Shown here in pieces: positions 24,392 through 61,735 of a DNA stretch of 64,000 nucleotides (positions are counted from its first letter, which is position 1; every line of letters begins with the position of its first letter). The DNA is from a bacterium (lineage in GTDB: Bacteria > Bacillota_I > Bacilli_A > RFN20 > CAG-826): positions 169,309 through 233,308 of the forward strand of contig CAVHQU010000001.1 in assembly GCA_963638555.1 (NCBI GenBank). The letters run 5' to 3'. The notes under the pieces were generated by a model. That model worked only from the letters and a program-made list of their open reading frames with translations, had not been told where the DNA came from and made no database searches. The position numbers were made by a program, and so were the translations under genes.

Positions 24392-25743
24392 TATCAACTT
24401 GGCTTAGCAATTTTCTAAACAATCTTATTCCAGGTTTATCTACACAATTTGTCATCGTTCTTTCGTATACGATAGAAATGATTGTTGCATGTTTAATATT
24501 TGGAATAAGAATCCCTAGGAGAAAAGGCTTCTTTTGGATTGTGCCTGTCTATATTGTAGGCTGTTTCCTACTAATTTTCCCTGTCTCTATATTGCGTTTA
24601 TATATAAATAATTGGAATAGATTCGGCACAGGCATTTTTCACTCGACTTACGGCTCTTTATTGATTATTGGCTATTTGTTTGCTGCCCATAAAGAAGAAA
24701 CGTATGAAACGATGCTTGATTTCGTTTCCATAGATGCTTCAACAATGTTAATTGGTAAATTCTATTCACTTCTTCTAAATATGGCAGGCAAAGATACAAC
24801 TAAATCGATGTCTTTTTTCCAAGATAGCAATAATCTAAGAGATTGGAGCATATACTGGATTTTGCATATCATTCTATACATACTCTTCGTCTTCCTTTTC
24901 TTCAATCAAAGAAGCCAATCTCTATCACACAAAGCAAAAAGAAACATCCTTGCATTAACTATTGGGTCCGTTCTTTTAATGAATATTGTTTTTTCGATAT
25001 CAAGTCCTTACGAAACGGAATCGATGGCATTAATGATAGTTATCAAACTTTTCACATGCCTTATTTGTTTATTCATTCTTTTCATCCGTGCAGGTTTGCT
25101 TAATCAATCGAAGAAAGAAAACGAAGCGGAACTCATGTATGAACTCTTTACGCAAGAAAAACAGCAATTTGATTCATGCAGAGCCTCAATCGATGTAATC
25201 AATAGAAAAACTCATGATCTTCGTCATCAATTGTCTTCCCTTGAAGGGAAACTCTCACAAGAAGAGATCAAAGAGTTAAAAGACGCAACACGTATATATG
25301 ATTCAACAATTCAAACTGGGAATGATGTTCTTGATGCAATAATATACGAAAAGCAACTACGTTTTGAAAAAGAAAACATCCACTTCACCTGCATGTTAGA
25401 TGGAAAGGCAGTTTCTTTCATTAAGCAAGAACATCTATATTCTTTGATGAATAATCTTTTGGGCAATGCCATCGAAGCAACTTCGAAACTAAAAGAGGGA
25501 AGAATCATCGATTTAACAATTAAAAAGAAAATGGGCTTCATCATCATTGAAGAGTTGAACACATTTGATGGCAAAATCTCTTTTGATGACAAAAACCGCC
25601 CAATTTCAAGCAAAAAAGATGGCCATAATCATGGCTTTGGAACAAAAAACATATCTTACGTAGTTAAGGAATATCATGGCGAAATAAAATATCAAACTCA
25701 AGACAATACATTCCGCGTCTTAATCTATTTTCCAGATAATTAA
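24388..25743 (+). CDS. AgrC/HPK10-like membrane sensor histidine kinase (GHKL ATPase)
   Basis: Overlaps the regulator gene by 4 nt. N-terminal half is multi-TM. H-box KTHDLRHQL; ATPase blocks NLLGNAIEA and GHGFGTKNI. Confidence 0.8.
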   Translation: MISTWLSNFLNNLIPGLSTQFVIVLSYTIEMIVACLIFGIRIPRRKGFFWIVPVYIVGCFLLIFPVSILRLYINNWNRFGTGIFHSTYGSLLIIGYLFAAHKEETYETMLDFVSIDASTMLIGKFYSLLLNMAGKDTTKSMSFFQDSNNLRDWSIYWILHIILYILFVFLFFNQRSQSLSHKAKRNILALTIGSVLLMNIVFSISSPYETESMALMIVIKLFTCLICLFILFIRAGLLNQSKKENEAELMYELFTQEKQQFDSCRASIDVINRKTHDLRHQLSSLEGKLSQEEIKELKDATRIYDSTIQTGNDVLDAIIYEKQLRFEKENIHFTCMLDGKAVSFIKQEHLYSLMNNLLGNAIEATSKLKEGRIIDLTIKKKMGFIIIEELNTFDGKISFDDKNRPISSKKDGHNHGFGTKNISYVVKEYHGEIKYQTQDNTFRVLIYFPDN

Positions 25744-25752
25744 AAATGTTAA

Positions 25753-25783
25753 TTTGGTTCATCTAAATTAGAGTTTGGTTCAT
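25753..25783 (+). promoter_or_regulatory. Direct repeat TTTGGTTCAT-N11-TTTGGTTCAT (21-bp register): candidate LytTR binding site
   Basis: Two perfect 10-mers starting at 25753 and 25774. A TAAAAT -10-like hexamer lies about 8 nt downstream (25792-25797). The site sits between the TCS and the lipoprotein/GH3 operon. Confidence 0.5.
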
Positions 25784-25849
25784 TAGTCTTTTAAAATGTA
25801 AGCGGTTTCTTTAATGTTTCCTCACAATCAAAATTTTGGAGGAAACACA

Positions 25850-27073
25850 ATGAAAAAGATTTTGACAATTAGTCTCCTAGCGACAATGGGCGCTTTGATG
25901 ACACTCACATCCTGTGGCGGAAGCAAGGAAAACACCGATTCATCAGCAAATGGTGCCTCTTCTGAAGAAACCGCTTCTTCTATCCAACCTGTAGTAGAAA
26001 GAAAATTGACTGGTTCATATTTAACTAGCGCTCAACTTTCTTATATGAATATGCGTCCAACATACAACTACTACACCACAAAATTCTCGTTCGAAGGCCT
26101 TGAAACATATTCAGATGGTTCTTACGTCTTCACGTTGGTTTCAATGTGCTATTCAGGTTTAAACTTACCAGAATCAGGTTCTGATGCCAGTGGATCCGAA
26201 AGAGAAAATTTTGTCAAAAAGTTCTATGGAACATATACATCTAAAACAAATGAATTAGATGATAGTATGTTAGACATCACTCTTGATATTCCTACACGTC
26301 TTACTAATGCATATAACTGTCAATATTTTGCTGATACAGCCGCCTGGACAGATGCAATGGCAACAGCCGTTTCAACAGATTCCTATGGTAACGTTTCAGA
26401 AACAAAATACACCGCTGAAACATATTTAGCGTCCCAAGCCTTCAATAAGACGACAGTTTCCGTTACAACATCTACCGCATCATTCGATTATTTCACTTTA
26501 AGAGAAGATGGCGCAGCTGATCCAAAAGTCACCGTCTCAACCGAAACATATGGTCTAACCGGTGCCTATCTTTCCCCATCAAGTTTAGCTTATAGCAATT
26601 TCCGCCCAACATATAACTACTACACCACAAGATTCGCGGAAGAGTACATCGAAACATATTCAGATGGAACATATCGCGCAGATATCATTTCTTCTATGTT
26701 CTCTGGATTAAACTTACCAGAAGAAGGAAATGATGCTAGTGGATCTGATCGTGCGAACTATATTCAAAGCTTCTATGGCAAATACGCATCCAAGACAAAT
26801 GAATTAGATGAAACCATGATTGATTTAACAATCAAATCACCAACGACAGTTAAATTAACATACGATGCTGCCTATTTCATTGATTCTGACAATTGGACAG
26901 ACGCAATGTCTAATGCAACCGCAACAACCGATAGAACAACTGGTGAGAAAACAATCAATTATAAAACTGGGGCAGAATATTTGAATGCAGTCAAATTCGA
27001 TGATCAAGAAATCTCTGTTACCACTTCAACAGCGTCATTTGATTTTATTAAATTAAGCGCTGAACTTAACTAA
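25850..27073 (+). CDS. Lipoprotein containing a tandem duplication of a ~170-aa domain
   Basis: Start moved to ATG 25850 (SD ggagg); the track ORF begins at 25814. Lipobox LMTLTSC. The repeats begin at nt 26006 and 26555 (LTGSYL..RPTYNYYTTKF..YSDGSY..SGLNLPE..DASGS..TNELD / LTGAYL..RPTYNYYTTRF..YSDGTY..). Confidence 0.75.
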   Translation: MKKILTISLLATMGALMTLTSCGGSKENTDSSANGASSEETASSIQPVVERKLTGSYLTSAQLSYMNMRPTYNYYTTKFSFEGLETYSDGSYVFTLVSMCYSGLNLPESGSDASGSERENFVKKFYGTYTSKTNELDDSMLDITLDIPTRLTNAYNCQYFADTAAWTDAMATAVSTDSYGNVSETKYTAETYLASQAFNKTTVSVTTSTASFDYFTLREDGAADPKVTVSTETYGLTGAYLSPSSLAYSNFRPTYNYYTTRFAEEYIETYSDGTYRADIISSMFSGLNLPEEGNDASGSDRANYIQSFYGKYASKTNELDETMIDLTIKSPTTVKLTYDAAYFIDSDNWTDAMSNATATTDRTTGEKTINYKTGAEYLNAVKFDDQEISVTTSTASFDFIKLSAELN

Positions 27074-27090
27074 TTTAAGGGGCACGTGTA

Positions 27091-30012
27091 ATGAAATTCA
27101 GAAAATTTAGAGGAGGTGCGGCAATTGGTGTTTGTGTTCTTTCATTGAGCACATTCGCTTCAATTCTTGCCTTTGAGAACTCTGGGCAAGTCGATATTGC
27201 CTTAGGCATCACAGGTGAGAAAAACACCAAACAAAGTGCATACTCTTCATTAGAAGAAATGCATGTCGCTGAAAAGGCAAATGAAATCCAAACGGAAGAA
27301 GAAGGTTCTGTCCTTTTCTACAATGAAAATAATGCTCTTCCATTATCTAATGCAAAGAAAGTTACTTTACTTGGCAGAACGGCTGCCGACAATATCTTCA
27401 AAGGCGGATCAGGCGGATCAACTACCACAGATGAAACTGCCACTTCCCTTTATGAAGCGTTAACTGCTCAAGGATATTCAATCAACGAAACAGTTTATAA
27501 TGCCTTAAAAGAATCACCAATCAAACGTGCTAGAGGCGATATTGGCGAAGTTCCTGCATCCTTCTACACGGATGATATGAAAAACTCTTTCAAAGAATAC
27601 GGTGATGCGGCCATCATCGTCTTGGGGAGATACTCTGGCGAGCAACAAGACTTGTGCGCTGGAGGTGACTCAGGTCAAGATAATGCGGTTGATGCCAATG
27701 GCGATCCTGTGGATTCTTCAGGTATTCGTATGCTCGCTCTTCATGATGAAGAAAGAGACATGATCAAGATGGCGGTTGAATCAAAAGCATTCTCCAAAGT
27801 CGTTGTCTTGCTTAACACTGTTAACCCAATGGAAATTGGTGAACTCAAAGGATTAGGCGTTGATGCATGTTTATGGGTTGGGATTCCTGGCTATACTGGT
27901 TTTGAAGGGGTTGCAAACATCCTTTCAGGAAAGGCAGATCCTTCAGGTCGTTTAGCTGATACATATGCTACTAACTCCTTAAGTGCGCCTGCAATGAGAA
28001 ACTATGGTTCATTTAACTGGGATAACATCACAGCTTCAGGTCAAAATAAGTACTTGGTTTATGCAGAAGATATTTATATTGGTTATAAATATTACGAAAC
28101 ACGTTACAACGATCAAATATTAGGTATCAACAATGCCACTTCAAGCAAAGGTTGCTATGCTTCCTCTTCTTCTTGGGATTATGCAGCCGAAATGGATTAC
28201 ACATTTGGCTATGGTACATCTTATGCTTCATTCACTCAAAAACTTGATTCATTAAAATGGGACAAGGACGCTCATACTGTCACCGCAAAAGTCACAGTTA
28301 AGAATGAAGGTTCAACTTCTTATACTGGCAAATCTAAGAATACTGTCGAATTATACGCTTCCCTTCCTTATGAAAAAGGCCAAGCGGCTAAATCAGCCAT
28401 TCAATTGATTGGCTATGGCAAAACAAAAGAGTTGGCTAAAGGTGAGGAAGATACAGTCACAATCACTGTTGATGATTATCTATTTGCAACATACGACCAA
28501 AACGCAACAAACGGAGCCGACACAACAAAGAAAGGCTGCTACACATTTGATGCAGGTGAATATTTCTTCGCTATTGGTGCTGATGCTCATGACGCATTAA
28601 ACAATGTTCTAGCTAAAAAAGGCAAAACAGGTCTCTTCGATGCAGATGGTAAATCTGTTTCAGGTGACGTCTCAAAGGTTGCAACTGATACTTTGGCTCA
28701 ATTGGATAACGTTACCCATGCAAAATCTCATGAGAATGAAAATGTTGTTGTTTCCAACCAGTTTGATGATATGGACATCAACTATTTCGAAGATAACGCA
28801 GTCACATATCTAACAAGAGATGATTGGAATACCTATCCAGTTCGTTATACAGGTTTATCTGCGACAGATGATATGAAAACTATCATCGATGGTCATACAT
28901 ATTCAAAACCAGCTGACGCACCAGACATCTCCGAATTCAAATATTCTCAAAAATATGATGAGACCATGATGCTAGCTGAACTCGTCAATGAGCCATATGA
29001 TTCCGATAAATGGGATACGTATATTGATCAATTAACGCCTTCTCAACTTGCCGCAATCACTGGCGAAAAGTTTGGCAACACAGGCTTAACTGACTATGGT
29101 TGCCCAGACAACTCTGCAGCCGATGGCCCAGATGGTATTCAAGCAAACACTGGCTTCTCTCATGTATGCGAAAACCTTGCAGCTTCAACATATAATGATG
29201 AATTATTGAAGAAACGTGGTGAATTCATGGCTGAAGACGGCATGTATTCAGGTCAAAACGGTGTTTATGGATTTGGTGCAAACATGCATAGAACCGTATA
29301 TGCCGGAAGAAACTTTGAATACTATTCCGAAGATATGATTCTTTCTTACCTTGCTGGCGCAGCCCAAACAAAAGCGGCCCAAGATAAAGGATTAACAACA
29401 TACGTTAAGCATTTCTGCGCTAACGACCAAGAAGTTTGGAGAAACGGTTCTTCAACAATCATGCGCGAACAAGCATATCGTCAAGGACCACTCAAAGGTT
29501 TTGAAGGCTCCTTCACCAAAGGAGAATCTCTTGGAACGATGACCTCTAACGCCCGTGTTGGCTTTAGAACAGTTTCTATGGACTATGGCACTATGACAAC
29601 TGTTCTTAGAAACGAATGGGGATTTAAAGGAACGGCCATGACCGACTCCTCTAAAGGTTCAACTCATTATCTCTATACAAAGGAATCAGTTGCAGCTGGT
29701 ATCGATCAATTTAACAACGACGAAACCAGAGGAACAACAGACATGAAAAACTATCTCATCAAGGAAAAAGATGGTTATCTTTGGAAGAGGGCAAGGGAGA
29801 TAGCCCATCACTACTTCTACACAATCTCTAGAAACTTCTGTATGTCTGGTTTATCAAAAGACACAGTTGTCGAATCAAAGACATCTTGGTGGAAAACAGC
29901 ATTAATCGCTTTAATAAGCGTTGAAGCAGTTATCACAGTCGGCTTAGCTGGCACAGCTGCCGTTGGGGGAATCCTCTCCTACAGCAAAAAAAGAAAGGAA
30001 GGTAACGAATAA
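27091..30012 (+). CDS. Glycoside hydrolase family 3 (beta-glucosidase-like), domain-permuted, with N- and C-terminal membrane anchors
   Basis: The GH3 C-terminal-type domain comes first (KVTLLGRTA..; PSGRLADTY). An Fn3-like block follows (FGYGTSYASF). The catalytic barrel blocks come last (KHFCANDQE; GFKGTAMTDS). The protein ends in a TM helix plus KKRKEGNE. Confidence 0.8.
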   Translation: MKFRKFRGGAAIGVCVLSLSTFASILAFENSGQVDIALGITGEKNTKQSAYSSLEEMHVAEKANEIQTEEEGSVLFYNENNALPLSNAKKVTLLGRTAADNIFKGGSGGSTTTDETATSLYEALTAQGYSINETVYNALKESPIKRARGDIGEVPASFYTDDMKNSFKEYGDAAIIVLGRYSGEQQDLCAGGDSGQDNAVDANGDPVDSSGIRMLALHDEERDMIKMAVESKAFSKVVVLLNTVNPMEIGELKGLGVDACLWVGIPGYTGFEGVANILSGKADPSGRLADTYATNSLSAPAMRNYGSFNWDNITASGQNKYLVYAEDIYIGYKYYETRYNDQILGINNATSSKGCYASSSSWDYAAEMDYTFGYGTSYASFTQKLDSLKWDKDAHTVTAKVTVKNEGSTSYTGKSKNTVELYASLPYEKGQAAKSAIQLIGYGKTKELAKGEEDTVTITVDDYLFATYDQNATNGADTTKKGCYTFDAGEYFFAIGADAHDALNNVLAKKGKTGLFDADGKSVSGDVSKVATDTLAQLDNVTHAKSHENENVVVSNQFDDMDINYFEDNAVTYLTRDDWNTYPVRYTGLSATDDMKTIIDGHTYSKPADAPDISEFKYSQKYDETMMLAELVNEPYDSDKWDTYIDQLTPSQLAAITGEKFGNTGLTDYGCPDNSAADGPDGIQANTGFSHVCENLAASTYNDELLKKRGEFMAEDGMYSGQNGVYGFGANMHRTVYAGRNFEYYSEDMILSYLAGAAQTKAAQDKGLTTYVKHFCANDQEVWRNGSSTIMREQAYRQGPLKGFEGSFTKGESLGTMTSNARVGFRTVSMDYGTMTTVLRNEWGFKGTAMTDSSKGSTHYLYTKESVAAGIDQFNNDETRGTTDMKNYLIKEKDGYLWKRAREIAHHYFYTISRNFCMSGLSKDTVVESKTSWWKTALIALISVEAVITVGLAGTAAVGGILSYSKKRKEGNE

Positions 30013-30449
30013 TGAATAACTACATCAAAGGGACCTTGCTTAGAAAAAGAAATATAGGCGAATGGATTACATTAGGCGTCAGCGTCTATATGTTAATCGT
30101 TGCAATCGTTTATCTTATTCTTGATGGCGGAGCAATGAAAATTCCAGATTACTCTAAAACATTAGCGTTCTGGATGTTGATTGCTGGCTCCATACTTGGA
30201 TTATCAACCGCTTTCTATGACGTTCGTTTCCTCAATTCAAGCATTACCCTAGTCTCGTTCGCCTGTTTCTCCGTTGCGGCTGGAAGACAACTCTATCTTG
30301 CCGGTTATCCAATTGCCGATTTAGCTACTGGAGTCAACTGGTTTGGCGGAAGCCTAGGTATTTACCTTGGCATGTTCATCGCGATGATGATTGGCGTTAT
30401 CGTCGAAATATTCGCATTATTCATGAAACAAAGTAAATTTGAAGACTAA
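30012..30449 (+). CDS. Small 4-TM membrane protein co-transcribed with GH3
   Basis: 145-aa ORF whose ATG overlaps the GH3 stop (TAATG). Four hydrophobic helices. Confidence 0.55.
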   Translation: MNNYIKGTLLRKRNIGEWITLGVSVYMLIVAIVYLILDGGAMKIPDYSKTLAFWMLIAGSILGLSTAFYDVRFLNSSITLVSFACFSVAAGRQLYLAGYPIADLATGVNWFGGSLGIYLGMFIAMMIGVIVEIFALFMKQSKFED

Positions 30450-30467
30450 GTAAAGCATTCAACAATA

Positions 30468-30498
30468 AGCATCTAGCCTCTTGGTTAGGTGCTTTTTT
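30468..30498 (+). terminator. Rho-independent terminator
   Basis: 11-bp stem agcatctagcc/ggttaggtgct (two G-U pairs) followed by tttttt. Confidence 0.6.
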
Positions 30499-30552
30499 AT
30501 TTGAATAATTGATACACGCATCCCCTGTTTTTAAAAATAACGTTTCTTTATT

Positions 30553-30580
30553 TTAACAGTCAGTAAATAATGGCTATAAT
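30553..30580 (+). promoter_or_regulatory. Sigma-A-type promoter TTAACA-N16-TATAAT
   Basis: Hexamers at 30553-30558 and 30575-30580, about 48 nt upstream of the aminopeptidase ATG (SD ggagg). Confidence 0.5.
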
Positions 30581-30628
30581 ATTCACATAAATTGGTAATT
30601 TATTATCTAGAAAGATGGAGGAAAACAC

Positions 30629-32404
30629 ATGAACGTCTTCGATAAGAGAGTTGCTCTTCTTCAAGCACACATGAAGAAGGATGGCATTAAAGCATATATT
30701 ATTCCAGCAACAGATCCTCATATGTCTGAGGAATCTCATTCACATTTCACAAGAGAGAGATTCTATTTCTGCTCATTCTTAGGAAATGATGGAACGTTAT
30801 TAGTTACTCAAGATGCTTACTACCTTTACACAGATGGTAGATATTGGGCTCAAGCTGAATGGGAATTAGACGGAAGTGAGTGCAAACTCGTCTATGCTGG
30901 CAGAGCAGGCGTTCCAACTTTAGCCGAATTCGTTAAAGAGAATGATTTATATCCATTAGGCCTAGATTCATCCTTACTTTCTTATGGAGGTTTAAAAGAT
31001 CTTTACAAAGATTCAGAGCATAAGATCAGACAAGTTTCCTATCGCTATATGATTAAAGACTTGCCAGCCTTGCCAAAAGAAAAGATTTGGAAGGTTGATC
31101 AATCTCTTCTCTCCACAACGATGGAAGAAAGAGTTAATGCAGCCATGGATGTCGTTAATAAAGCAGGCGCTAAAGCATTAGTCATCCCAGCCCTTGATGA
31201 TGTTGCCTACATTTTAGGATATCGTGGTAACGATATTCCATGCACGCCCGTCTTCTATTCATATATCTACATCGATGAAACAAGAAAAGTTCACTTATTT
31301 ATCGATAATGAAAAACTTCCTGATGGGGGAATTCCTGAAGTTGAAGTTCATGGCTATGATACGTTCTTTGACTTCCTTAGAGAACATTGTGAAATCAAAA
31401 CATATGTCGATGCACAAAACACAAACGCAAGAATCTGTTCTATTTTGAAGAATAAAGTCTTTGGAAATAACCCTACAATCGCTCAAAAAGCAATCAAAGG
31501 TCCAAAAGAAATTGAAAACACAAAAAAGATTCAAGAAATTGATGGCTTAGCAGTATTGAAGCTCATGAAATATGTTGATGAGAATCTTGGAAAAGAAGAA
31601 CTCACCGAATATGCATGCGCAAAATACATTGACGATGCAAGAAAGAGTGATGATAAATGCTTCGACATTTCCTTTACTACTATTGCCGCTTTAGATGCAA
31701 ATGCAGCCATGATGCATTACCATCCAAGCGAAAACGATTCACCCAAAATCAGTGCTGACAACCAACTTCTTCTTGTTGATTCAGGCGGACAATATTATGG
31801 CGGAACGACTGATACAACAAGAACGTTCATTATCGGTTCCAACGTTTCTGATGAAGTCAAAGTAGACTACACAAAAACACTAAAGTCACAAATCAATTTA
31901 TCTACATGCGTCTTTGAAAAAGGATGCTCAGGTCACGAAATCGATATCATGGCTAGAGAAATCATGTGGAAAGAAGGATTGGATTACAAATGCGGAACAG
32001 GTCACGGTGTTGGCTATATGTCTTGCGTGCATGAAGGTCCAATTGGTTTCAGATATTATCACCGCGAAGGAGTTTACGATGATGCAATTCTTGAACCTGG
32101 ACACATCATTACAATTGAACCTGGTGTCTACAAAGCAAGAAAACATGGCATCCGTTTGGAGAATAATCTTCTTGTTGTTCCTGCATTTGAAACGAATGAT
32201 GGTATCTTCTATAAATTCGAAACAATCACATATGCACCATATGATCCTAGAGGAATCGTTGTCTCAATGTTAACTGATGAAGAACTTGCTTGGGTAAATT
32301 CTTATAATCAAATGGTTTATGAGAAATTATCAGCTCTCATCAAAGATGATTACGATCTCCTTGCATATTTGAAACAAGTAACTTCGCCATTAGTTAGGGC
32401 ATAA
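30629..32404 (+). CDS. Aminopeptidase P family (M24B Xaa-Pro aminopeptidase), long form
   Basis: 591 aa with creatinase/prolidase-type N-domains and an M24 pita-bread C-domain (LLVDSGGQYYGGTTDTTRT; GHGVG; ITIEPGVY). Confidence 0.8.
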   Translation: MNVFDKRVALLQAHMKKDGIKAYIIPATDPHMSEESHSHFTRERFYFCSFLGNDGTLLVTQDAYYLYTDGRYWAQAEWELDGSECKLVYAGRAGVPTLAEFVKENDLYPLGLDSSLLSYGGLKDLYKDSEHKIRQVSYRYMIKDLPALPKEKIWKVDQSLLSTTMEERVNAAMDVVNKAGAKALVIPALDDVAYILGYRGNDIPCTPVFYSYIYIDETRKVHLFIDNEKLPDGGIPEVEVHGYDTFFDFLREHCEIKTYVDAQNTNARICSILKNKVFGNNPTIAQKAIKGPKEIENTKKIQEIDGLAVLKLMKYVDENLGKEELTEYACAKYIDDARKSDDKCFDISFTTIAALDANAAMMHYHPSENDSPKISADNQLLLVDSGGQYYGGTTDTTRTFIIGSNVSDEVKVDYTKTLKSQINLSTCVFEKGCSGHEIDIMAREIMWKEGLDYKCGTGHGVGYMSCVHEGPIGFRYYHREGVYDDAILEPGHIITIEPGVYKARKHGIRLENNLLVVPAFETNDGIFYKFETITYAPYDPRGIVVSMLTDEELAWVNSYNQMVYEKLSALIKDDYDLLAYLKQVTSPLVRA

Positions 32405-32422
32405 TCGATTCAATTCAATATT

Positions 32423-32449
32423 AAGCGTTACATGATGTAACGCTTTTTT
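32423..32449 (+). terminator. Rho-independent terminator
   Basis: Stem aagcgttac/gtaacgctt followed by a T-run. Confidence 0.65.
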
Positions 32450-32470
32450 GTTACGTTTGTTTCATTATAA

Positions 32471-32499
32471 TTGAATTTTAACTAAATTTTACATATACT
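32471..32499 (+). promoter_or_regulatory. Sigma-A-type promoter TTGAAT-N17-TATACT for the A1-B1-A2-B2 cassette
   Basis: -35 at 32471-32476 and -10 at 32494-32499. The predicted start site coincides with ATG 32506. Confidence 0.5.
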
Positions 32500-32518
32500 T
32501 TCGTCATGAGAAAAAAAT

Positions 32519-34108
32519 ATGTGCCAAAAATTATCGCACCTTCTTCTATTTATCTCTACAATCGTCTCCGTTTCTAATTTTGGCGTATCAAGAAGTCAAA
32601 AGTCTACTAACGAAAAAACGTTTTTTTCTAGGAAACTTATTCGTTCAACCAAGAAATCAGAAAAGAATGAGGATTCCTATTTTGATTATAAATTTGATGG
32701 AGCAAACGAATACCGGGAATCTAATGGCGATGAATTTGAAAAAGTTGATTGTATAAACGGCTCAAATTCATCAATAAAAATTCAAAATGAACCGGGCCGA
32801 GAAACTGTATTGAAAGCAGTTACTGAGCCAAATAGTGAAAGCACAAAAACGATTTCATATAACGATATCAAAGAGAATAATGATACTTTTTTAACTGCAA
32901 CCAATATGTATTCAGTTGGTTCATATAAGGACGGAATCACAAAAATGTGGTCTTGGCGTTATGCGACCATAAATCAAAAAACGGAGGGACCGCTTTGGTG
33001 GAAGAAAACATACATTGATAAAGATTTTTATTCGTTCGATGTAGCTTGCAGCGGAACGTTAAATATTTCTTTAACTGAGATTCCATCGAATTGTGACTAT
33101 GACATGCGTTTATATAGATTAGAAGATGAAATAAACGCAAACGCCGCTACATTAAATTTTGATAACTATGAAGGGTGCAGCCGAAATTCAAAAGGCCAGG
33201 ATGAATATATCTCATACTCTGTTGTGCCTGGAACATATTATATTTGTGTTTATTCATATAACGATCAAACTTATGATAATGACAATCCGTATAAAATTAC
33301 GTTTGAAGAAATATCTAATTCCGGAACAAGCGAAACTTCTTACTATATAGATGTCGGGAGAGTTGAAAACGACATAGGAGCTATATGGATAAGTGATTAC
33401 TCTCCTTTCGGTTTATCGCCGATGACTTTAACGGACACCCAAGCAAGGAAAAAATTCACAAACTATGATTGTTACCCATATATACAACATTTAGCGAACA
33501 ATTATGAAGATTGTAGCATCAATTTCGCAGTTCTTTACCTCTGGAATTTGCAAGCGCGTGCTTATATATATGCTTGGGCACAAAACATATTGAACTCATT
33601 ATACAATTACAATAATTGGGCAAATGATTCTGTAAGTTCTTTTGGGGTCCATTTAAACGATGCTTCAATGGCAGTAACAGTTGGTGGGACAATCATAAAC
33701 ACAATAAGCGAAGCCACAATCGCAGAAACTGCAAAAGCCGCTTTAAACTCATTAGGCTTTTTATCCAGTCTCGCTGGATCTGTGATATCTCTAATTTCTT
33801 TTGTGAACTCATTTTCTTTGGAGAATGAGTTTCAAATCAGCAGAAAGAATTTGATTCAATATTTGGTTAATATCAAGGCGGCCTTTGAAATAGGAACCGG
33901 CAGTAACGAAGATCAAACGATAATGCTTAAATTCAGATATCACTTCAGTGAAAAACAATATATTGATTGGTCACCAAGGTACGAATTAGGCGAAGCAAAT
34001 ATGCATAATGAAGATTACGTTTCACTTCAAATTCCAGGTAGTGGGATAAAAGGAACGGCACATGGAATACACTCAACAACCGATTTAGAAAAATATTTAA
34101 GGAGTTAA
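32519..34108 (+). CDS. Secreted protein A1: signal peptide, PPC (pre-peptidase C-terminal)-like domain, novel C-terminal domain with hydrophobic helical hairpin
   Basis: PPC-like pattern NDTFLTAT..DKDFYSFDV..GTLNISL..NCDYDMRLY..PGTYYICVYSY..NPYKITFEE. Hydrophobic stretch at about nt 33660-33810. Homologous to 34605-36176. The true start may be ATG 32506 (see findings). Confidence 0.7.
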   Translation: MCQKLSHLLLFISTIVSVSNFGVSRSQKSTNEKTFFSRKLIRSTKKSEKNEDSYFDYKFDGANEYRESNGDEFEKVDCINGSNSSIKIQNEPGRETVLKAVTEPNSESTKTISYNDIKENNDTFLTATNMYSVGSYKDGITKMWSWRYATINQKTEGPLWWKKTYIDKDFYSFDVACSGTLNISLTEIPSNCDYDMRLYRLEDEINANAATLNFDNYEGCSRNSKGQDEYISYSVVPGTYYICVYSYNDQTYDNDNPYKITFEEISNSGTSETSYYIDVGRVENDIGAIWISDYSPFGLSPMTLTDTQARKKFTNYDCYPYIQHLANNYEDCSINFAVLYLWNLQARAYIYAWAQNILNSLYNYNNWANDSVSSFGVHLNDASMAVTVGGTIINTISEATIAETAKAALNSLGFLSSLAGSVISLISFVNSFSLENEFQISRKNLIQYLVNIKAAFEIGTGSNEDQTIMLKFRYHFSEKQYIDWSPRYELGEANMHNEDYVSLQIPGSGIKGTAHGIHSTTDLEKYLRS

Positions 34109-34110
34109 TC

Positions 34111-34608
34111 ATGATAGAAAAAAATTACATAATCAGCAAATCTCAGCATTTTAAATGGAAATTCAGAAGTGCTTGGCCATTTTATTTAGTGATGGTTTCA
34201 TCCTTTTTGGCAGCATTTTCTTCTTTTGTTGCTATCGGCTGTAAAATCAATTTAAATCAAATGGACAATTCTTATTTCTTTTTATACATAATCTTCTTAG
34301 TTTGTCTTCCTTTAGGACTATTAACGTTACGTTTAATCATTAATTTTTCAAATAAAATTCTTTTCGAAGATGTCAAAGTAGAAATAGACCCATTCACCAA
34401 AACAATAACCGTCACTAGTAAGGATGACAGGGGCAATGTACTAACGACCATAAATAAAATTGCATATAAAAAGGAAAAGAAAAAATATTTCATATTGGGC
34501 AGAGAATGGGGGCGTTTCTTTTACGTCCCGAAAGCCGGAATGAAGAAAGACGACATTAAAACAATCAGAGCAATAAAACCATTGAAAGTTGAGAAATATC
34601 ATCAATGA
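34111..34608 (+). CDS. Small 2-TM protein B1, YcxB-like (candidate immunity/partner protein)
   Basis: SD aaggag, 2 nt after the A1 stop. Two TM helices, then a C-terminal KKYFILGREWGRFFYVPKAGMKKDDIKTIRAIK block (YcxB-like, from memory). Confidence 0.6.
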   Translation: MIEKNYIISKSQHFKWKFRSAWPFYLVMVSSFLAAFSSFVAIGCKINLNQMDNSYFFLYIIFLVCLPLGLLTLRLIINFSNKILFEDVKVEIDPFTKTITVTSKDDRGNVLTTINKIAYKKEKKKYFILGREWGRFFYVPKAGMKKDDIKTIRAIKPLKVEKYHQ

Positions 34609-36176
34609 GAAATCACAAAATCACAAAAAACATATCTTTAGCTTTTTTATTCATTTTATCATCATTGACGCCCTCAGCAAGAAGTCAAAACCTATCATTC
34701 TTTAGTGGGCAAAAAATAAGCAAAAGATTAGAACTCCAAGCATCTAAAAAGGATGATTCAAATTTTGATTATGAATTTGATACTTCTTCCTCTTTCTCAA
34801 ACAATGGGTCCGACGAATTCGAATCTATGGGATTAAACGATGGAAAACGGTCAGGAGAAAAAATAGAAAATAATAACGGGGAAATTTATGTCACAAAAAA
34901 TGAAAACAATGTTACTAAAAGTGATATTTCTACAGCAACTTATAACGATAGCTGCGAAAACAATGACTCTTTTTTAACCGCTTCAAGTGCTTATGCCGTT
35001 GGCACGAACGATGGTGGAATATATAAACATTGGGTTTGGTGCTATGCAACAATTAGTCAAAAAACTGAAGGCATGCTTTGGTGGAAACAGACCTATATAG
35101 ACAAGGATTTCTATTCTTTTGATGTAGTTTCGGTTGGAACTTTAAAGGTTACTTTAAGTGATATTCCTACTAATTGTGATTATGATCTACGTTTATATAA
35201 AATTGAAGACAAATTAGAATGCTCATATGCCAGTTGTAACTTTGATGATCCGATTGCCTCAAGTGCAAATGCATCGAATACGGATGAGAATGTTTCGATT
35301 TCGGTTAAACCTGGAACATATTACGCTTGTGTCTATTCTTACAAAGACCAAACTTTTGATAACAACAACCCATATAAATTGACATTTGAAGAGGATGTAG
35401 ATGACACAAGGTATGGTTCATATTATTCTATAAATAATGGAAGAAATGATGGAGATTTAGGTGCAGTATGGCGCAGCGACTACAAACCGTTAGGAATTAC
35501 TCCAGTAAACATATCAGAAGAAAACGCCCAAGTAGGTCTTGCAAATTCATCCACTTATCCGTACATAAAGCATTTGATTGATAAATATTCTTCTGACGAA
35601 AAAATTACATACGCCATAGTTTATGTATGGGATGTTGAACTAAGAGCGTTGATACGATCTGCATTACAATTGATATTAGAAGAAATCTACGAAAGAGAGG
35701 AAACATATTTCAATGCATTTAATATAAGTTGGAATGCGGCAAATTTATTTATTTCAATAGGCGGCCTTATTGTAAGCACTATATCTTTGGCTAATATAGC
35801 AACATCGGCTTTATTAACTGGTGCAATAACCGCAACTTCACTTTCGATGGGTTTTATTTCAACAATTTTATCATTTGCTATAGGTTATCAATTCCAAATA
35901 GAAAGACAAGAATTGATAAATTATTTAATAAATGCAATAAGCGCCTTTGAAGTTGGAAAAGGAAGCAATAATAAAGAAGTCGTAATGTTAAAGTTCAAAT
36001 ATAGGTTCATTAAAAAAGAACGTTGGTATTTAGATTGGACTCCATCTTATGATGTAGATGGTCAAAATAGATATAACGAAGATCAAATTACTCATCAATT
36101 GAAAGGAAGTCCAATAAACGGAAGGATAATAGGTTTTCAAGACGAACACACTCTATACAACTTATTAGGATTTTAG
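34605..36176 (+). CDS. Secreted protein A2 (paralog of A1)
   Basis: ATGA overlap with B1. Signal peptide MRNHKITKNISLAFLFILSSLTPSA. Same PPC block (TYIDKDFYSFDV, NCDYDLRLY, PGTYYACVYSY, NPYKLTFEE) and same C-terminal architecture (YPYIKHL, MLKFKYRF). Confidence 0.75.
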   Translation: MRNHKITKNISLAFLFILSSLTPSARSQNLSFFSGQKISKRLELQASKKDDSNFDYEFDTSSSFSNNGSDEFESMGLNDGKRSGEKIENNNGEIYVTKNENNVTKSDISTATYNDSCENNDSFLTASSAYAVGTNDGGIYKHWVWCYATISQKTEGMLWWKQTYIDKDFYSFDVVSVGTLKVTLSDIPTNCDYDLRLYKIEDKLECSYASCNFDDPIASSANASNTDENVSISVKPGTYYACVYSYKDQTFDNNNPYKLTFEEDVDDTRYGSYYSINNGRNDGDLGAVWRSDYKPLGITPVNISEENAQVGLANSSTYPYIKHLIDKYSSDEKITYAIVYVWDVELRALIRSALQLILEEIYEREETYFNAFNISWNAANLFISIGGLIVSTISLANIATSALLTGAITATSLSMGFISTILSFAIGYQFQIERQELINYLINAISAFEVGKGSNNKEVVMLKFKYRFIKKERWYLDWTPSYDVDGQNRYNEDQITHQLKGSPINGRIIGFQDEHTLYNLLGF

Positions 36177-36178
36177 CT

Positions 36179-36661
36179 ATGGAAAATTTAGTAATGGTTT
36201 TAAATGTTAGTGGTTTAAGGAAATGGAAATTTCAATCAGGATGGGGCTACCTAATACCAGCAATTATAGTCATCCCATTTTCAATTTTTATTGCCGTTGA
36301 ACTCATTTTAAGCGTAAATGGTAATATCGAAAGACTTCAAACTGCAAACATATATACATATTGGTACTTCATATCATTATTGTTATTACCATCGTCAATA
36401 ATGCCATATAAGCATTACTCCAAGGAAATGTATGGTAAACAGTTAAAATTGAAAGTTTCATTCGACGAAAAAGTTGTAACCGGGACATTCATGGCAAAAA
36501 ATGGAGATACTCGTTCTAACAAAATAGAAATTGAATATGTAAAAGAATATGTCAAATATTTTAAGATTGGAAGAAGTTTCTACAACTTCTATTTCCTTCC
36601 AAAAAGCAAATTATCTAAAGAGCAATTAGAAGCAATTAGAAGCTTAAAAAAGCCTAATTAG
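36179..36661 (+). CDS. Small 2-TM protein B2 (divergent paralog of B1)
   Basis: Starts 2 nt after the A2 stop. RKWKFQSGW and VKYFKIGRSFYNFYFLPKSKLSKEQLEAIRSLK mirror the B1 blocks. Confidence 0.6.
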   Translation: MENLVMVLNVSGLRKWKFQSGWGYLIPAIIVIPFSIFIAVELILSVNGNIERLQTANIYTYWYFISLLLLPSSIMPYKHYSKEMYGKQLKLKVSFDEKVVTGTFMAKNGDTRSNKIEIEYVKEYVKYFKIGRSFYNFYFLPKSKLSKEQLEAIRSLKKPN

Positions 36662-36904
36662 AAATACACGCCTCCGCTATTTTTAAAATCTTTAACAGTT
36701 TTTTCTAATATAAATTCGTTTTCGGTTTGAGTAAGAATTTTGCATTTATTACCATTTCTATACTCACCATCAGAATCGGCTAAATTAAGAGTTTTCATTC
36801 CTTTTAATTCAAGTTCATATGTGTTGACATAACCGCCACTCTCATATTTGCTAGCTCATAAGTTGGTTGTCAATTATTTCATTTGAACCATGATAAACTA
36901 TCAT
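36658..36904 (-). pseudogene. Frameshifted remnant of a small gene (N-terminus MIVYHGSNEIIDN, DUF3990-like from memory)
   Basis: A 17-codon ORF from ATG 36904 ends at TAG. A +1-shifted frame then continues ..SKYESGGYVNTYELELKG..KDFKNSGGVYF* to 36658. Neither piece passes the ORF-track length cutoff. Confidence 0.25.
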
Positions 36905-36956
36905 GATTGTATTTTACTACAATATTTTTTACTTATATTCTTGTATTTGAATACAA

Positions 36957-37712
36957 CTATTTAATGAATGACGAAATCAAGGAAACCACTTCTTTTCTTT
37001 GCTCTGTAACTGTTATTGTTGGAGTTCCGTCACCACTTTGAATGCCATAATCTCCAAAATACGAATGTATTCCGCCTTCAATCGTATGTTCTTCTAATTG
37101 AGGAAGATATTGCTTGTTTGATTCATATTTGCCTTTATTGATAACCTTATCGTTACTTGCCAATAAAGATAATGTTTTTAAGTTACTAGAAGTTAGATCA
37201 ACGGTTGAATATGCAGCCAAAAGAACGACCCCGTTATACTCTTTTGAGTGATTTCCTAGATATGAACACGCCATTGCTCCGCCCAAAGAATGGCCGCCAA
37301 TATACCAATTAGTGACATTCGGCATTAAAGATTGTTTGTTATCTGCACCATTCATATTAAAAACAGCTAAATTGAATGGCATCTTAACCAAGACCGATGA
37401 AATGCCTTGATCAGATAGATCTCTCAATAAGGGGGCATATGCCTTATATTCAACTTTACCGCCTGGATAGAAAATAAATCCGTTTGTGGATTTTCCATCT
37501 TTTGGTTGGAAGGTAACGTAATCGTTTTTATCTTCTACTTTAGATAATGCTGAATCATTCAAATACGTTAACGCATCATTTGTGGCATGCTGATAAATGC
37601 CAACATAAATAAAGAATGCAGCCGCTACCGCTACAAGCACTCCACCAATTGAGGATGAGATAATAATTATTCTTTTAGTTCTTTTTTTCATAACACGAAT
37701 ATTATCGTTCAA
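36957..37712 (-). CDS. Membrane-anchored alpha/beta hydrolase
   Basis: N-terminal TM helix and nucleophile elbow GGHSLGGAMA. Confidence 0.7.
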   Translation of the reverse strand: MNDNIRVMKKRTKRIIIISSSIGGVLVAVAAAFFIYVGIYQHATNDALTYLNDSALSKVEDKNDYVTFQPKDGKSTNGFIFYPGGKVEYKAYAPLLRDLSDQGISSVLVKMPFNLAVFNMNGADNKQSLMPNVTNWYIGGHSLGGAMACSYLGNHSKEYNGVVLLAAYSTVDLTSSNLKTLSLLASNDKVINKGKYESNKQYLPQLEEHTIEGGIHSYFGDYGIQSGDGTPTITVTEQRKEVVSLISSFIK

Positions 37713-37717
37713 TATCC

Positions 37718-38221
37718 TTATTTCTTAAATGATATATTCTCTAATTTAAGAAGCTTTTCTTTTCTATCTATTCCTCCAGCATATCCAACTAAAGAACCAT
37801 CTTTGCCTAAAATCCTGTGGCAAGGAATTATTATGGATATAGGGTTATGTGATATGGCATTGCCAGCAGCTTGGGCAGACATTTTTTCTTTATTTAATTT
37901 ATGCGCTACTTCTTTTGCTATTTCACCATATGTTTTAGCGTGTCCATATGGAATAGTTAGAAGAATATCTAGAACTAGTTTTTGAAAAGGAGAGAACCCG
38001 TATGCTAATTTAGGAGTAAATTTTGGTTCCTCTCCAATAAAATAAATATCAAGCCAACGTTTGGTTTCTAAAATTGTCGTAGTGTCTTTACATTCTGTTT
38101 TATCAGTTAACTTAGATCCAAAATATTTCTGATCATTGAACCACAAGCCAATAAGAAAACCATCCTCTTCAGCAAGAGTCATCTTTCCTAAAGGAGATTC
38201 ATATTCAGAAACGTAAATCAT
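37718..38221 (-). CDS. ogt: Methylated-DNA-protein-cysteine methyltransferase
   Basis: Active-site motif IIIPCHRILG plus the TYGEIA helix-turn-helix block. Confidence 0.85.
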   Translation of the reverse strand: MIYVSEYESPLGKMTLAEEDGFLIGLWFNDQKYFGSKLTDKTECKDTTTILETKRWLDIYFIGEEPKFTPKLAYGFSPFQKLVLDILLTIPYGHAKTYGEIAKEVAHKLNKEKMSAQAAGNAISHNPISIIIPCHRILGKDGSLVGYAGGIDRKEKLLKLENISFKK

Positions 38222-40837: not shown

Positions 40838-43072
40838 ATGAAAAAATCCAAATTATTAGCAGTCACTCTTCTAGGAGCAGTCTTGGCCTTAGCAGGTTGT
40901 GGCGAAACTCACACTTCTTCATCCGAAGGAGCATCTTCATCCACTGAATCTAGCGTTTCCGGAAGTTCATCATCTTCATCGTCAAGTTCAGAAGTTTCAT
41001 CTTCATCATCCGAAGAAGCATCAAGCAGTTCATCAAGTTCTGATTCAACACCAGCAGGTTTATCAAAGGCTGATGTTTCTGACATCATTGCAAAAGCAAT
41101 CACAGCTCAAGGAACAAAAGTCTGCAGTGGTGTAATGTCGGATGATTATGGTTCAACCACATCATATGAATATGGTACAGATAAGTACGGTAACTTCACA
41201 AAGATTACAAATTCCTATAGCACATACTATTATGGTTATAATGCTGCAGGTGACATCTACGGTCTCCAAGTCTCATCGTATAATGGATCTTTATCAACCC
41301 CATGGAGCGTTGATGCAAAATCAATCTACGGCCCTAGCGCATATTTTTCTTCTGTAAACACTGGTTCATACCTTTATGGTGTTCAAGGCATTCTTGAGCA
41401 TATCTCTGGCGTTATTGAAGCCGATGCCAATGGTGATTTTGAAGTCGATGGCGATAGCACAGCATTCTCATTTAGCGTTGGTGTCGTCGGAACATTATGG
41501 GGCAGCACGGCCTTACATGTATGGTCACTTGATTTCACGATGGAAGATGACATAGTTAGTGTCCTTACAGTCAAATGCACATCATATACAGGTGACAATA
41601 TCGAAGCCGATTATGAAACAAACAAATATTCAGTTGTTGAAGGAGCCGATGCTGAACAAACAACCAGATTTGTATTCGCTCAATCAATTGGCGACAAAAC
41701 TGCAACAAACCCATATGATATCGAAGGTTTATATTTCACTTCCGTCAACTACAAAGATTCCGATGGAAACGATCTTGGCGCAGAATATTCAGTAGGTGCA
41801 TCCAGCAACATTGCCTTTACTGTTGATTCGTATGAACCATCTACAGCAAGCTTTAGCATCGATGGAATCACGTTGACCCACGATAATACCGACAATCCAT
41901 ATGGCATCTCTGGTGGTTACTACAATGGCAAATATACCATCTACGCTTATAACGAAGGCGACTACAACGTTACACTATCAACAGCCCACACTTCTAAGAC
42001 ATTCCTTCTCCACGTCACAAAACCAACAGCAAGCGAAATCAGCTATGTCCAAGGTTATACAAAAGAAGGCGATACATATTCTTATGTCGATGTTAATGAA
42101 GAAGCCAAAGCAACCGTCTATGCTGGACAATCTATCTCTTTAAGCGCAACAATTTCTCCAACAAAAGCTGATCAATCCTACACAGCAGAGATTGTAGGTG
42201 ATAATGCTGATGATGCAACATTGGTTTCCGAAACAATCAAACCAGATACATGGTCTGATGATACAAGTGTTTATACATTCACATCCAACGTCCCAGGCAC
42301 ATACGAAGTTAAGATTACTTCCGCAACAGTTACAACTGTCAGCAAGACAATCACAATCACTGTCGTTGCTGCTCCAGAACTCTCTGGCTTACTTGCAAAG
42401 AGATATACATACACAGTCGCTGAACCTGGCACTGGCGTTAAGATCTACGACGATATCACATTCACCCCAAGTGCATCTGATGCAACAACAGGTACCGTTT
42501 CTATCTACACATATGACTATGAAAATTCAACTGGCTCTACCGTTGAATGCTCCTACACATATGATGCAGTAACAAGATCATTCTCATTAACGAAAGATGG
42601 CGCAGCGTATACGACTGTAAGCTTAGCATTCTCCACATCCTATAACTTAGTAATTACAACTGGAAGCGGTGATGATGCAGTTTCAACAATCGTTAAAGAA
42701 TTCGATGTCGCAACAATCTTAAAGAACACAGCCTGGTATGCTACAGCCAGCAATGATGCAGATGTTTCCTTTAGTTTCATGTACGATGGAACAGTTTCAT
42801 TCGAAACATGCATTTCCGGATATGATGAATGGGGCGATTGGGATTACACGCTTGATGCATATAAATACTATATGGATTACTCCATCAGTGAAACAGATGA
42901 AGGTTATGTTATCGTTCTCAGCCAAGATGACTTAGACGAAATTGCCGAAATGGATTCTGGTTTCGATGGAATCACTAAGATTGTTATGGCAAAGGATTTC
43001 TCCAAACTAAGCGTCACTCTCTCTTATGATGGAACGGCCGAAACTGTAGACTGCTCTTATACCAGAGGTTAA
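40838..43072 (+). CDS. Large surface lipoprotein with Ser-rich linker
   Basis: MKKSKLLAVTLLGAVLALAGC lipobox followed by about 50 aa of poly-Ser/Glu. SD gaggt. Confidence 0.7.
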   Translation: MKKSKLLAVTLLGAVLALAGCGETHTSSSEGASSSTESSVSGSSSSSSSSSEVSSSSSEEASSSSSSSDSTPAGLSKADVSDIIAKAITAQGTKVCSGVMSDDYGSTTSYEYGTDKYGNFTKITNSYSTYYYGYNAAGDIYGLQVSSYNGSLSTPWSVDAKSIYGPSAYFSSVNTGSYLYGVQGILEHISGVIEADANGDFEVDGDSTAFSFSVGVVGTLWGSTALHVWSLDFTMEDDIVSVLTVKCTSYTGDNIEADYETNKYSVVEGADAEQTTRFVFAQSIGDKTATNPYDIEGLYFTSVNYKDSDGNDLGAEYSVGASSNIAFTVDSYEPSTASFSIDGITLTHDNTDNPYGISGGYYNGKYTIYAYNEGDYNVTLSTAHTSKTFLLHVTKPTASEISYVQGYTKEGDTYSYVDVNEEAKATVYAGQSISLSATISPTKADQSYTAEIVGDNADDATLVSETIKPDTWSDDTSVYTFTSNVPGTYEVKITSATVTTVSKTITITVVAAPELSGLLAKRYTYTVAEPGTGVKIYDDITFTPSASDATTGTVSIYTYDYENSTGSTVECSYTYDAVTRSFSLTKDGAAYTTVSLAFSTSYNLVITTGSGDDAVSTIVKEFDVATILKNTAWYATASNDADVSFSFMYDGTVSFETCISGYDEWGDWDYTLDAYKYYMDYSISETDEGYVIVLSQDDLDEIAEMDSGFDGITKIVMAKDFSKLSVTLSYDGTAETVDCSYTRG

Positions 43073-61246: not shown

Positions 61247-61735
61247 TTATTCGAGGAGTCCTTTAATTGTTGTGCCTTTATAGGCAAATGTATACGAAGT
61301 TGAACTTGAAAAATCAACTGTGAATGCGACTAAAACATTTGGATGAGTTATAACTGTCGCATTTTCATCTATTGCATCAATTGTTGTTGTATCTGATCTC
61401 TTAGTTATATAAACCTTTTTGCCTTCAGTTCCAGCAGTGAATTGCCATCCATCAACAATTCCGTACGATGATGTTGTTTTGCCATCAATGGTAACCGTGA
61501 AATCATCTTTAGAAACTGTAACAGCTTTGCCAGTTCTATTTGCGACGCTAAATGTAGTTACGTAAATTGGTGTACTATCAGTTTCGCTAGCATTCATTTT
61601 TTGACAAAATTCACTAGATGTTGAATCGCTCTTTGAGAAAACTATATTTCCTGAATTTCCACCCATGCCATTACAGGAGGCTAACATTATCGGTAATCCA
61701 AGTAATCCGATCATCATTTTGATTGTTTTTTTCAT
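61247..61735 (-). CDS. Small lipoprotein
   Basis: MKKTIKMMIGLLGLPIMLASC lipobox. 162 aa, beta-rich. Confidence 0.65.
   Translation of the reverse strand: MKKTIKMMIGLLGLPIMLASCNGMGGNSGNIVFSKSDSTSSEFCQKMNASETDSTPIYVTTFSVANRTGKAVTVSKDDFTVTIDGKTTSSYGIVDGWQFTAGTEGKKVYITKRSDTTTIDAIDENATVITHPNVLVAFTVDFSSSTSYTFAYKGTTIKGLLE

Follow-up and report, generated by a model that had tools for sequence, protein, structure and literature searches.

Background

In Neisseria, pilC and opa carry repeats within the region coding for the signal peptide, either as G tracts or as CTCTT pentamers, and their rates are well measured. In Listeria monocytogenes, the 5' end of inlA contains a poly(A) tract which is in frame with seven A's and gives an 8-amino-acid truncation with six (Orsi, Bowen & Wiedmann 2010, PMC2831843). 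The tract slips at rates of 5.5e-7 and 3.9e-8 per cell, natural alleles exist, and the 5' ends of genes are enriched in poly(A) tracts of up to 7 nucleotides (PMC2831843). In Mycoplasma hominis, the adhesin gene vaa is on with 8 A's and off with 7 or 9, with frequencies of 1e-3 to 1e-4 (Zhang & Wise 1997, as reported in PMC524362). Here a start-proximal tract of the same kind is described for A1, a gene for a predicted secreted protein, in a stretch of 64,000 nucleotides from a bacterium of the GTDB lineage CAG-826 (GCA_963638555.1, contig CAVHQU010000001.1, positions 169,309 to 233,308). The whole of this stretch is called the window. The tract has seven A's in the window and six in a closely related genome, and its length determines whether A1 is joined in frame to a putative leaderless start.

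Results

The promoter-like sequence upstream of A1 (32471-32499; coordinates are window positions on the + strand unless marked otherwise) consists of TTGAAT at 32471-32476, a spacer of 17 nucleotides and TATACT at 32494-32499. After a gap of 6 nucleotides (ttcgtc) follows an ATG at 32506-32508 without a Shine-Dalgarno (SD) sequence. It opens a dead-end open reading frame (ORF; 32506-32577) of 23 codons, MRKKYVPKIIAPSSIYLYNRLRF, which ends at TAA 32575-32577. A homopolymer of seven A's (A7, 32511-32517), bordered by G32510 on the 5' side and by T32518 and then ATG 32519-32521 on the 3' side, sits between ATG 32506 and the A1 frame, and the tract length sets the reading frame of A1. The A1 ORF itself (32519-34108, 529 amino acids) begins at this internal ATG and lies in the +1 frame relative to ATG 32506. 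Upstream it is closed by TGA 32507-32509 and has no ATG, GTG or TTG before 32519, so ATG 32519 is the sole start that keeps the signal peptide. Further upstream, the M24 aminopeptidase gene (30629-32404) ends in an intrinsic terminator hairpin at 32423-32445, with a 10-bp stem and then a T run, which forms the left edge of a variable island and thereby confines the A1 promoter to the approximately 60 nucleotides between hairpin and ATG. A first-pass annotation of this DNA had given the promoter, the ATG, the tract, the 23-codon frame and the A1 frame, and on re-reading all of them were exact to the base; that A7 puts ATG 32506 out of frame with A1 follows directly from the sequence. With one A removed from the tract the reading becomes MRKNMCQKLSHLLLF..., in frame with A1, and this is the real sequence of the genome GCA_963592895.1.

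This second genome was reached through the 90% cluster of the A1 protein; searches for the exact protein sequences of A1 and the M24 gene gave no match. Its contig CAVAYT010000020.1 (locus L002) aligns to window positions 24518-36161 (11.6 kb) with 99.03% identity, 111 substitutions and two indels. Both indels shorten A7 to A6, and both affect start-proximal tracts, within 12 nucleotides of the start, in the adjacent genes A1 and B1. At the first, 32511-32517, the sister equivalent of ATG 32506 reads MRKNMCQKLSH... straight into A1. The first-pass annotation had predicted that a six-A version would be in frame and parallel to the paralogue A2, and the allele found in GCA_963592895.1 bears this out, as does the orthologue in locus L027 of a sister species, where Met1 aligns with ATG 32506. 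The second indel is in the tract at 34118-34124, which lies 7 nucleotides after the ATG of B1, in codons 3-5. B1 (34111-34608) encodes a membrane protein of 165 amino acids behind a strong SD (AAGGAG) and is intact in the window; the N-terminus of this A7 form (MIEKNYIISKSQHFKWKF, with the pattern MIE..YIIS..QHFKWKF) is conserved in orthologues of two sister species (L027 and L028). The A6 form in the sister genome has a stop after 6 codons and leaves a 138-amino-acid remnant. The states are reciprocal: in the window A1 is cut off from its upstream start and B1 is intact, and in the sister genome A1 is joined to that start in frame and B1 is broken.

Of the four 7-nucleotide homopolymers in the aligned region, the other two (29986 and 32621, inside or at the end of coding sequence) are unchanged, as are all of about 20 six-mers. 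Two scans of Joint Genome Institute metagenomes, with patterns that allowed a variable gap at the tracts of A1 and B1, gave no match and no further alleles. The A7/A6 difference at A1 is, judged from the aligned genomes, a real slippage-type polymorphism between strains.

The A1 coding sequences also differ in other ways. Between window 32519-34108 and L002 8001-9590 there are 11 nonsynonymous and 4 synonymous differences, and the ratio of nonsynonymous to synonymous polymorphism (pN/pS) is 0.71, compared with 0.03-0.13 in the flanking genes (Fisher 1.7e-4). Several of the derived changes are on the sister side, including W161R at a Trp that is invariant in the family, and the window A1 retains all family-invariant residues.

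Leaderless mRNAs have a 5'-terminal AUG and are initiated by 70S ribosomes; they are common in Actinobacteria, Deinococcus and some Mollicutes. The A1 promoter matches at 9 of 12 positions, and such sites number 25 in the region with 40 expected in shuffles. The match by itself is not above chance; its position is informative. This was examined in 19 first-ATG starts of window ORFs of at least 140 amino acids without an SD, and in 27 starts with a strong SD. A -10-like box, defined as a TATAAT-like hexamer with at least 5 of 6 matches ending 5-9 nucleotides upstream of the ATG, was found at 8 of the 19 SD-less starts, at none of the 27 with a strong SD and at 3.2% of all ATGs in the window (Fisher 3e-4 between the two sets; binomial 6e-8 against all ATGs). 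A perfect TATAAT stands 6-9 nucleotides before the ATG at 10610(-), 20592(+), 40534(-) and 50282(-), and the SD-less genes with either TATAAT or TATACT at this distance are these four and 23687(+). A1 was tested at ATG 32519 and scored as a non-match, so that the class test is independent of the finding at A1. These starts point to a minority class of genes without SD whose mRNAs are likely to be leaderless, in a genome that otherwise uses strong SDs.

ATG 32506, with TATACT and a gap of 6, fits the leaderless-type class and ATG 32519 does not. The SD duplex energy is +3.7 kcal/mol at ATG 32506 and -2.7 kcal/mol at ATG 32519, compared with a background median of -1.4 and 25th percentile of -3.0, and most genes have -6 to -13 kcal/mol. 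The earlier statement that ATG 32519 has no SD is therefore nearly true, with an energy at background level, although not strictly, as there is a weak GAGA/AGAAA SD-like match 7-8 nucleotides before it. The proposal that the A1 mRNA is leaderless from ATG 32506, also made in the first pass, gains from the existence of an independent SD-less, -10-adjacent class in the same window; it is supported, not proved.

Comparisons within the A family bear on which of the two starts is the older. Family N-termini are typically M[KR][KRN].. followed by a hydrophobic core, and the start DNA is often of the ATGAAAAAAA type, with A6 or A7 behind a strong SD. The start of A2, ATGAGAAAT... (MRNHKITKN), has its Met1 aligned with ATG 32506, and L027 has an in-frame ATG at the aligned position. 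The A tract itself is absent from the orthologues in L027 and L028. The gene caller picked an internal ATG both in the A6 genome (L002) and in L027 despite the in-frame upstream ATG; its choice of start is unreliable here and was discarded as evidence. On the family pattern and the alignment of Met1 in A2 and L027, ATG 32506 in the A6 frame is taken as the ancestral start, with A7 as a derived or switched state.

Homopolymers are restricted in length throughout the window. In positions 1-64000 there are 705 A/T runs of 4 nucleotides, 267 of 5, 107 of 6 and 28 of 7, and none of 8 or more, where the decay with length would predict roughly 8-10 eight-mers. No G/C run of at least 6 nucleotides was found in the window. 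The same ceiling of 7 is seen in most related loci, and it suggests strong selection against longer slippage-prone tracts in the clade. Four more genes in the window have A7 (T7 on the + strand) 3-6 nucleotides from the ATG, at 20471-20477, 37682-37688, 50270-50276 and 61726-61732, and have MKK-type N-termini. The tract at 37682 is unchanged in the loci L001 and L031 and interrupted in L030.

Early frameshifts were also found elsewhere in the A family. A homologue with 42% identity in another species (P0006 cluster, 44 members) has ATGAAAAATAAAAAAATA with A7 in 7 contigs and with A6 in 2 samples, and the A6 allele is frameshifted after codon 5. Over 4 kb, 5 substitutions and 2 indels separate the A7 genomes from the A6 genomes, and the indels are both in the 5' region of the gene: A7 to A6 and a linked 1-nucleotide deletion in the 5' untranslated region (L032 1854 and 1892 compared with L039). 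The two A6 contigs are identical, come from separately assembled samples and share the second linked indel, which implies that the allele is inherited and not newly arisen. In a third species, T5 is shortened to T4 with a frameshift at approximately codon 26 (L042 ~2499 compared with L017). In the P0021 cluster, from another species, the A-family gene lies in pieces of 68-393 amino acids on long contigs. UBA4682 and Ca. Enterosoma sp. (L003 and L004, ~2940-2990) have a strong SD, AAAGGAGG, followed by ATGGGGGAA. Here the SD-linked ATG is followed by G5, a tract that is rare in such AT-rich genomes, and neither genome has this ATG in frame with the A-family ORF; the frame would be repaired by G6 in UBA4682 and by G4 in Ca. 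Enterosoma sp. The site could be a further start-proximal switch or else an upstream ORF. Early frameshifts are common in the A family, which fits contingency and recurrent gene loss equally well.

Downstream of A1 and B1 the cassette continues with A2 (34605-36176), a paralogue of A1 with 523 amino acids whose ATG overlaps the B1 stop (ATGA), and ends with B2 (36179-36661), a paralogue of B1 with 160 amino acids. Homology to the related species L031 ends at ~32449, and homology to related species resumes at ~36857-36938. The related species L030 and L031 (83-88% DNA identity) lack the A1-B1-A2-B2 cassette and instead have a 297-amino-acid gene and an opposite-strand DUF3990 gene at the same site (8843-10100 in L030 and 8904-10431 in L031), between the M24 peptidase and abhydrolase genes. 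With these breaks in homology and its absence from relatives, the cassette with its promoter is classed as an accessory island (~32450-36860). In L028 a homologous A-B-A-B cassette is located on the other side of the guaA block. A scan of genome contigs, which gave 24 family loci at 30-45% identity and did not include the window's own species among them, found the A family in no bacteria other than uncultured gut Bacilli, under the labels Bacilli, Mollicutes, Ca. Enterosoma and UBA Bacillales. A separate observation in the window concerns a predicted lipoprotein of 744 amino acids (40838-43072) with a long N-terminal serine-rich low-complexity region, SSSSSSSSSEVSSSSSEEASSSSSSS, which is highly indel-variable in comparison with L031.

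The function of the A proteins was approached with a PDB sequence search, NCBIfam, an AlphaFold model (pLDDT 75) and two fold searches. No matches were found among PDB sequences or in NCBIfam. A1 is a predicted secreted protein with a PPC (PF04151) / collagen-binding-like beta sandwich, supported by a significant PPC profile match, and this is the sole recognisable module in A; the C-terminal half of A1 has no match among solved structures. A reading of A and B as toxin and immunity proteins was considered and is without support.

Other types of control at the A1 start were also considered. Folding of 32506-32600 gives a z-score of 0.28 with no stimulatory element near the tract, and RNA structure masking the start was rejected. 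The sole match of the intergenic region in Rfam has an E-value of 0.47 and 21.7 bits, below the gathering score of 49 bits, and a riboswitch or small RNA there was rejected. An invertible promoter was likewise rejected, since the inverted repeats found are all short, imperfect and of a type usual in AT-rich DNA. Two pairs of 15 nucleotides with 87-93% complementarity (32506-32520 / 36922-36936 and 32481-32495 / 36178-36192) connect the promoter and start of A1 to the distal end of the island and to the start of B2; given the AT-rich DNA, they are probably due to chance.

Discussion

The explanation favoured here, with moderate confidence, is that a replication-slippage frameshift uncouples A1 from its leaderless start and leaves A1 off or strongly reduced, and that the tracts of A1 and B1 are paired hypermutable sites of the inlA/vaa type. 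A1 heads the accessory cassette of four genes (A1-B1-A2-B2) in an uncultured gut member of the Bacilli, with secreted PPC-domain proteins and small membrane partners as the predicted products. In the ancestral state the mRNA would be leaderless, with a promoter that puts the 5' end on ATG 32506, and a 5'-terminal AUG at this position would mean that this codon fixes the reading frame. Codons 3-4 of the signal peptide, in its Lys-rich n-region, are made up by the A6/A7 tract, and A7, as the longest homopolymer class that the genome tolerates, would be the most slippage-prone. After a +1 slippage from A6 to A7, ribosomes starting at the 5'-terminal AUG would make a dead-end peptide of 23 codons in a frame that overlaps and would occlude ATG 32519. 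A1 would then be left to weak internal initiation 13 nucleotides from the 5' end.

The lack of a proper SD at 32519 together with the leaderless architecture suggests that A1 expression is lost in this allele. The first-pass annotation had spoken of ON/OFF switching; the short MCQK... form has a usable signal peptide, and 'off' may mean 'strongly reduced'. The A6 allele of the sister genome would restore MRKNMCQKL..., and in the A7 allele B1, with its own AAGGAG SD, and the downstream genes should still be translatable. The second A7/A6 tract, 7 nucleotides into B1, would act alike and is in the opposite state in the two genomes. Together the two tracts would constitute hypermutable and, in principle, reversible on/off sites.

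Several observations weigh against this explanation. Other -10 candidates, a perfect TATAAT at 32466-32471 and TAAATT at 32483-32488, would give a leadered transcript, ATG 32519 has its weak GAGA/AGAAA SD-like match, and the short form MCQKLSHLLLF... keeps a plausible signal peptide. For classical phase variation, a tract of seven A's is short; slippage of the inlA tract with A6 or A7 is only ~5e-7 and 4e-8 per cell. The seven-mers, the longest class in the window, number 28 in 64 kb, and 7 of these are within 12 nucleotides of a start, so that the A1 tract could be a by-product of Lys codons and not an evolved switch. A1 is known from two genomes only, and the 'in-frame' sister allele has W161R and a broken B1; the A6 genome is not obviously the 'working' state. 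The T5/T4 case in the third species fits recurrent gene loss as well as switching.

A possible, if on the whole doubtful, account of the same data is early decay of a dispensable cassette: a slow and effectively one-way strain polymorphism without adaptive switching, in which indels fall where mutation is easiest and are retained because selection on A1 and B1 is weak or negative. The cassette is absent from related species, which have other genes at the same site, and A-family genes are fragmented on the long contigs of the P0021 cluster. The high pN/pS of A1 and the sister W161R at an invariant site are in keeping with decay, the T5 to T4 frameshift needs no long tract, and the A6 allele of the P0006 cluster with its linked indel, common to two samples, is inherited. 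Rates of only 1e-7 to 1e-8, as measured for A6/A7 in inlA, also agree with slow change. However, the two indels are the only ones in 11.6 kb and both are within 12 nucleotides of the starts of adjacent genes, the position of the tract recurs in another species, and A1 and B1 are otherwise intact, full-length ORFs.

It is improbable that the indel is nearly neutral, with A1 translated from ATG 32519 in both alleles of a transcript that begins upstream, for instance from the TATAAT at 32466-32471. ATG 32506 would then be a short upstream ORF with A7 or an optional extension of 4 residues with A6. In both genomes the gene caller settled on ATG 32519, also where ATG 32506 is in frame, but it likewise skipped the in-frame upstream ATG in L027, so its choice is weightless. 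The SD-like match 7-8 nucleotides before 32519 has -2.7 kcal/mol, which is background in a genome where genes use -6 to -13. The perfect TATAAT has no -35 box. TATACT followed by 6 nucleotides and ATG matches the leaderless class of the window. MCQK with LSHLLLFISTIVSV would be a workable signal peptide, and the window A1 keeps its invariant residues; on the other hand, family members and A2 begin with M[KR][KRN].

The first-pass annotation had offered three alternatives, a switch, a fixed inactivating frameshift or an assembly error, and a homopolymer length error in one assembly, with no biological difference, is the least likely of these and very hard to reconcile with the data. Both differences are single bases in 7-mers, where errors of sequencing and polishing are likeliest. 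Against this, there are only two indels in 11.6 kb, and the two other 7-mers and about 20 six-mers agree. The A7 of B1 recurs in an independent Logan assembly (SRR13434627) that spans 34003-37845, and two samples of another species, assembled separately, agree exactly on the analogous A6 allele. Moreover, either corrected state breaks one gene, the A1 start with A7/A7 or B1 with A6/A6. Programmed recoding, by which transcriptional or +1 ribosomal slippage on the A run would restore the frame as MRK(K)NMCQ... at a set ratio, can practically be dismissed: RNA polymerase and ribosomes are known to slip on A runs and the needed shift is +1 within an A AAA AAA U context, but the out-of-frame layout is shared neither by the sister genome, which is in frame, nor by L027 and L028, which have no tract, a classic -1 slip on A_AAA_AAA gives the wrong frame, neither a stimulatory structure (fold z-score 0.28) nor an Rfam match was found, and efficient transcriptional slippage usually needs at least 9 A's.

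Replication slippage at the two tracts, as favoured above, could be extended to a combinatorial contingency system in uncultured RF39-like gut Bacilli, with two independent, fast and reversible poly-A switches and a design that recurs across the family. This extension is unlikely. If true, one switch would act on a leaderless secreted PPC-domain protein and the other on its membrane partner, giving subpopulations with different surface or secreted repertoires. Fast flipping could then stem from a reduced genome that handles slippage poorly, and the G5 tracts that follow the SD-linked ATG of UBA4682 and Ca. Enterosoma would belong to the same pattern.

Surface genes with phase variation or hypermutability are well known from cultured pathogens and have hardly been described from uncultured gut Bacilli with reduced genomes (RF39 or 'Ca. 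Enterosoma'-like). The two A6/A7 tracts are a concrete marker, which can be checked in reads, for strain or within-host variation of a secreted binding protein and its membrane partner. There is also a consequence for annotation, because gene callers skipped a promoter-adjacent in-frame upstream ATG in L002 and L027, and this hides frameshift alleles such as that of A1.

Comparison with known systems

In common with leaderless mRNAs elsewhere, several genes in the window have a -10 box ending 6-9 nucleotides before an ATG without SD. The difference is that such putatively leaderless genes are a minority class here, most genes having strong SDs.

The pilC and opa genes of Neisseria resemble A1 in that the A1 repeat lies within the signal-peptide codons and a change of frame acts before the mature protein. 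They differ in a much higher repeat number and in belonging to Gram-negative pathogens.

A1 resembles vaa in having a poly-A tract early in the coding sequence of a gene for a surface protein and in its on/off expression by frameshift, which is predicted for A1; vaa also comes from a low-GC, host-associated relative of the Bacilli with a reduced genome. As reported in the source cited above, vaa switching is shown in clonal populations at high frequency, whereas A1 is known from variation between genomes; the vaa tract is one base longer, and vaa is not known as leaderless.

With vaa, the closest parallel is inlA, likewise a secreted or surface gene in Bacillota with A6/A7 in the first codons and a single-A indel as a natural polymorphism, inactivating in inlA and putatively so in A1. 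The phase is opposite, since A1 is in frame with six A's and out of frame with seven. The A1 start also appears to be leaderless, which would leave no alternative ribosome loading, although the internal ATG 13 nucleotides further on could rescue a shortened signal peptide. At the A1 locus, unlike at inlA, the neighbouring partner gene also has a tract of variable length. The A1 locus shares its defining anatomy and its between-strain variation with inlA and vaa, and is of a kind that is already well known; it departs from this kind modestly, in its putative leaderless coupling and in the pairing of tracts in neighbouring partner genes.

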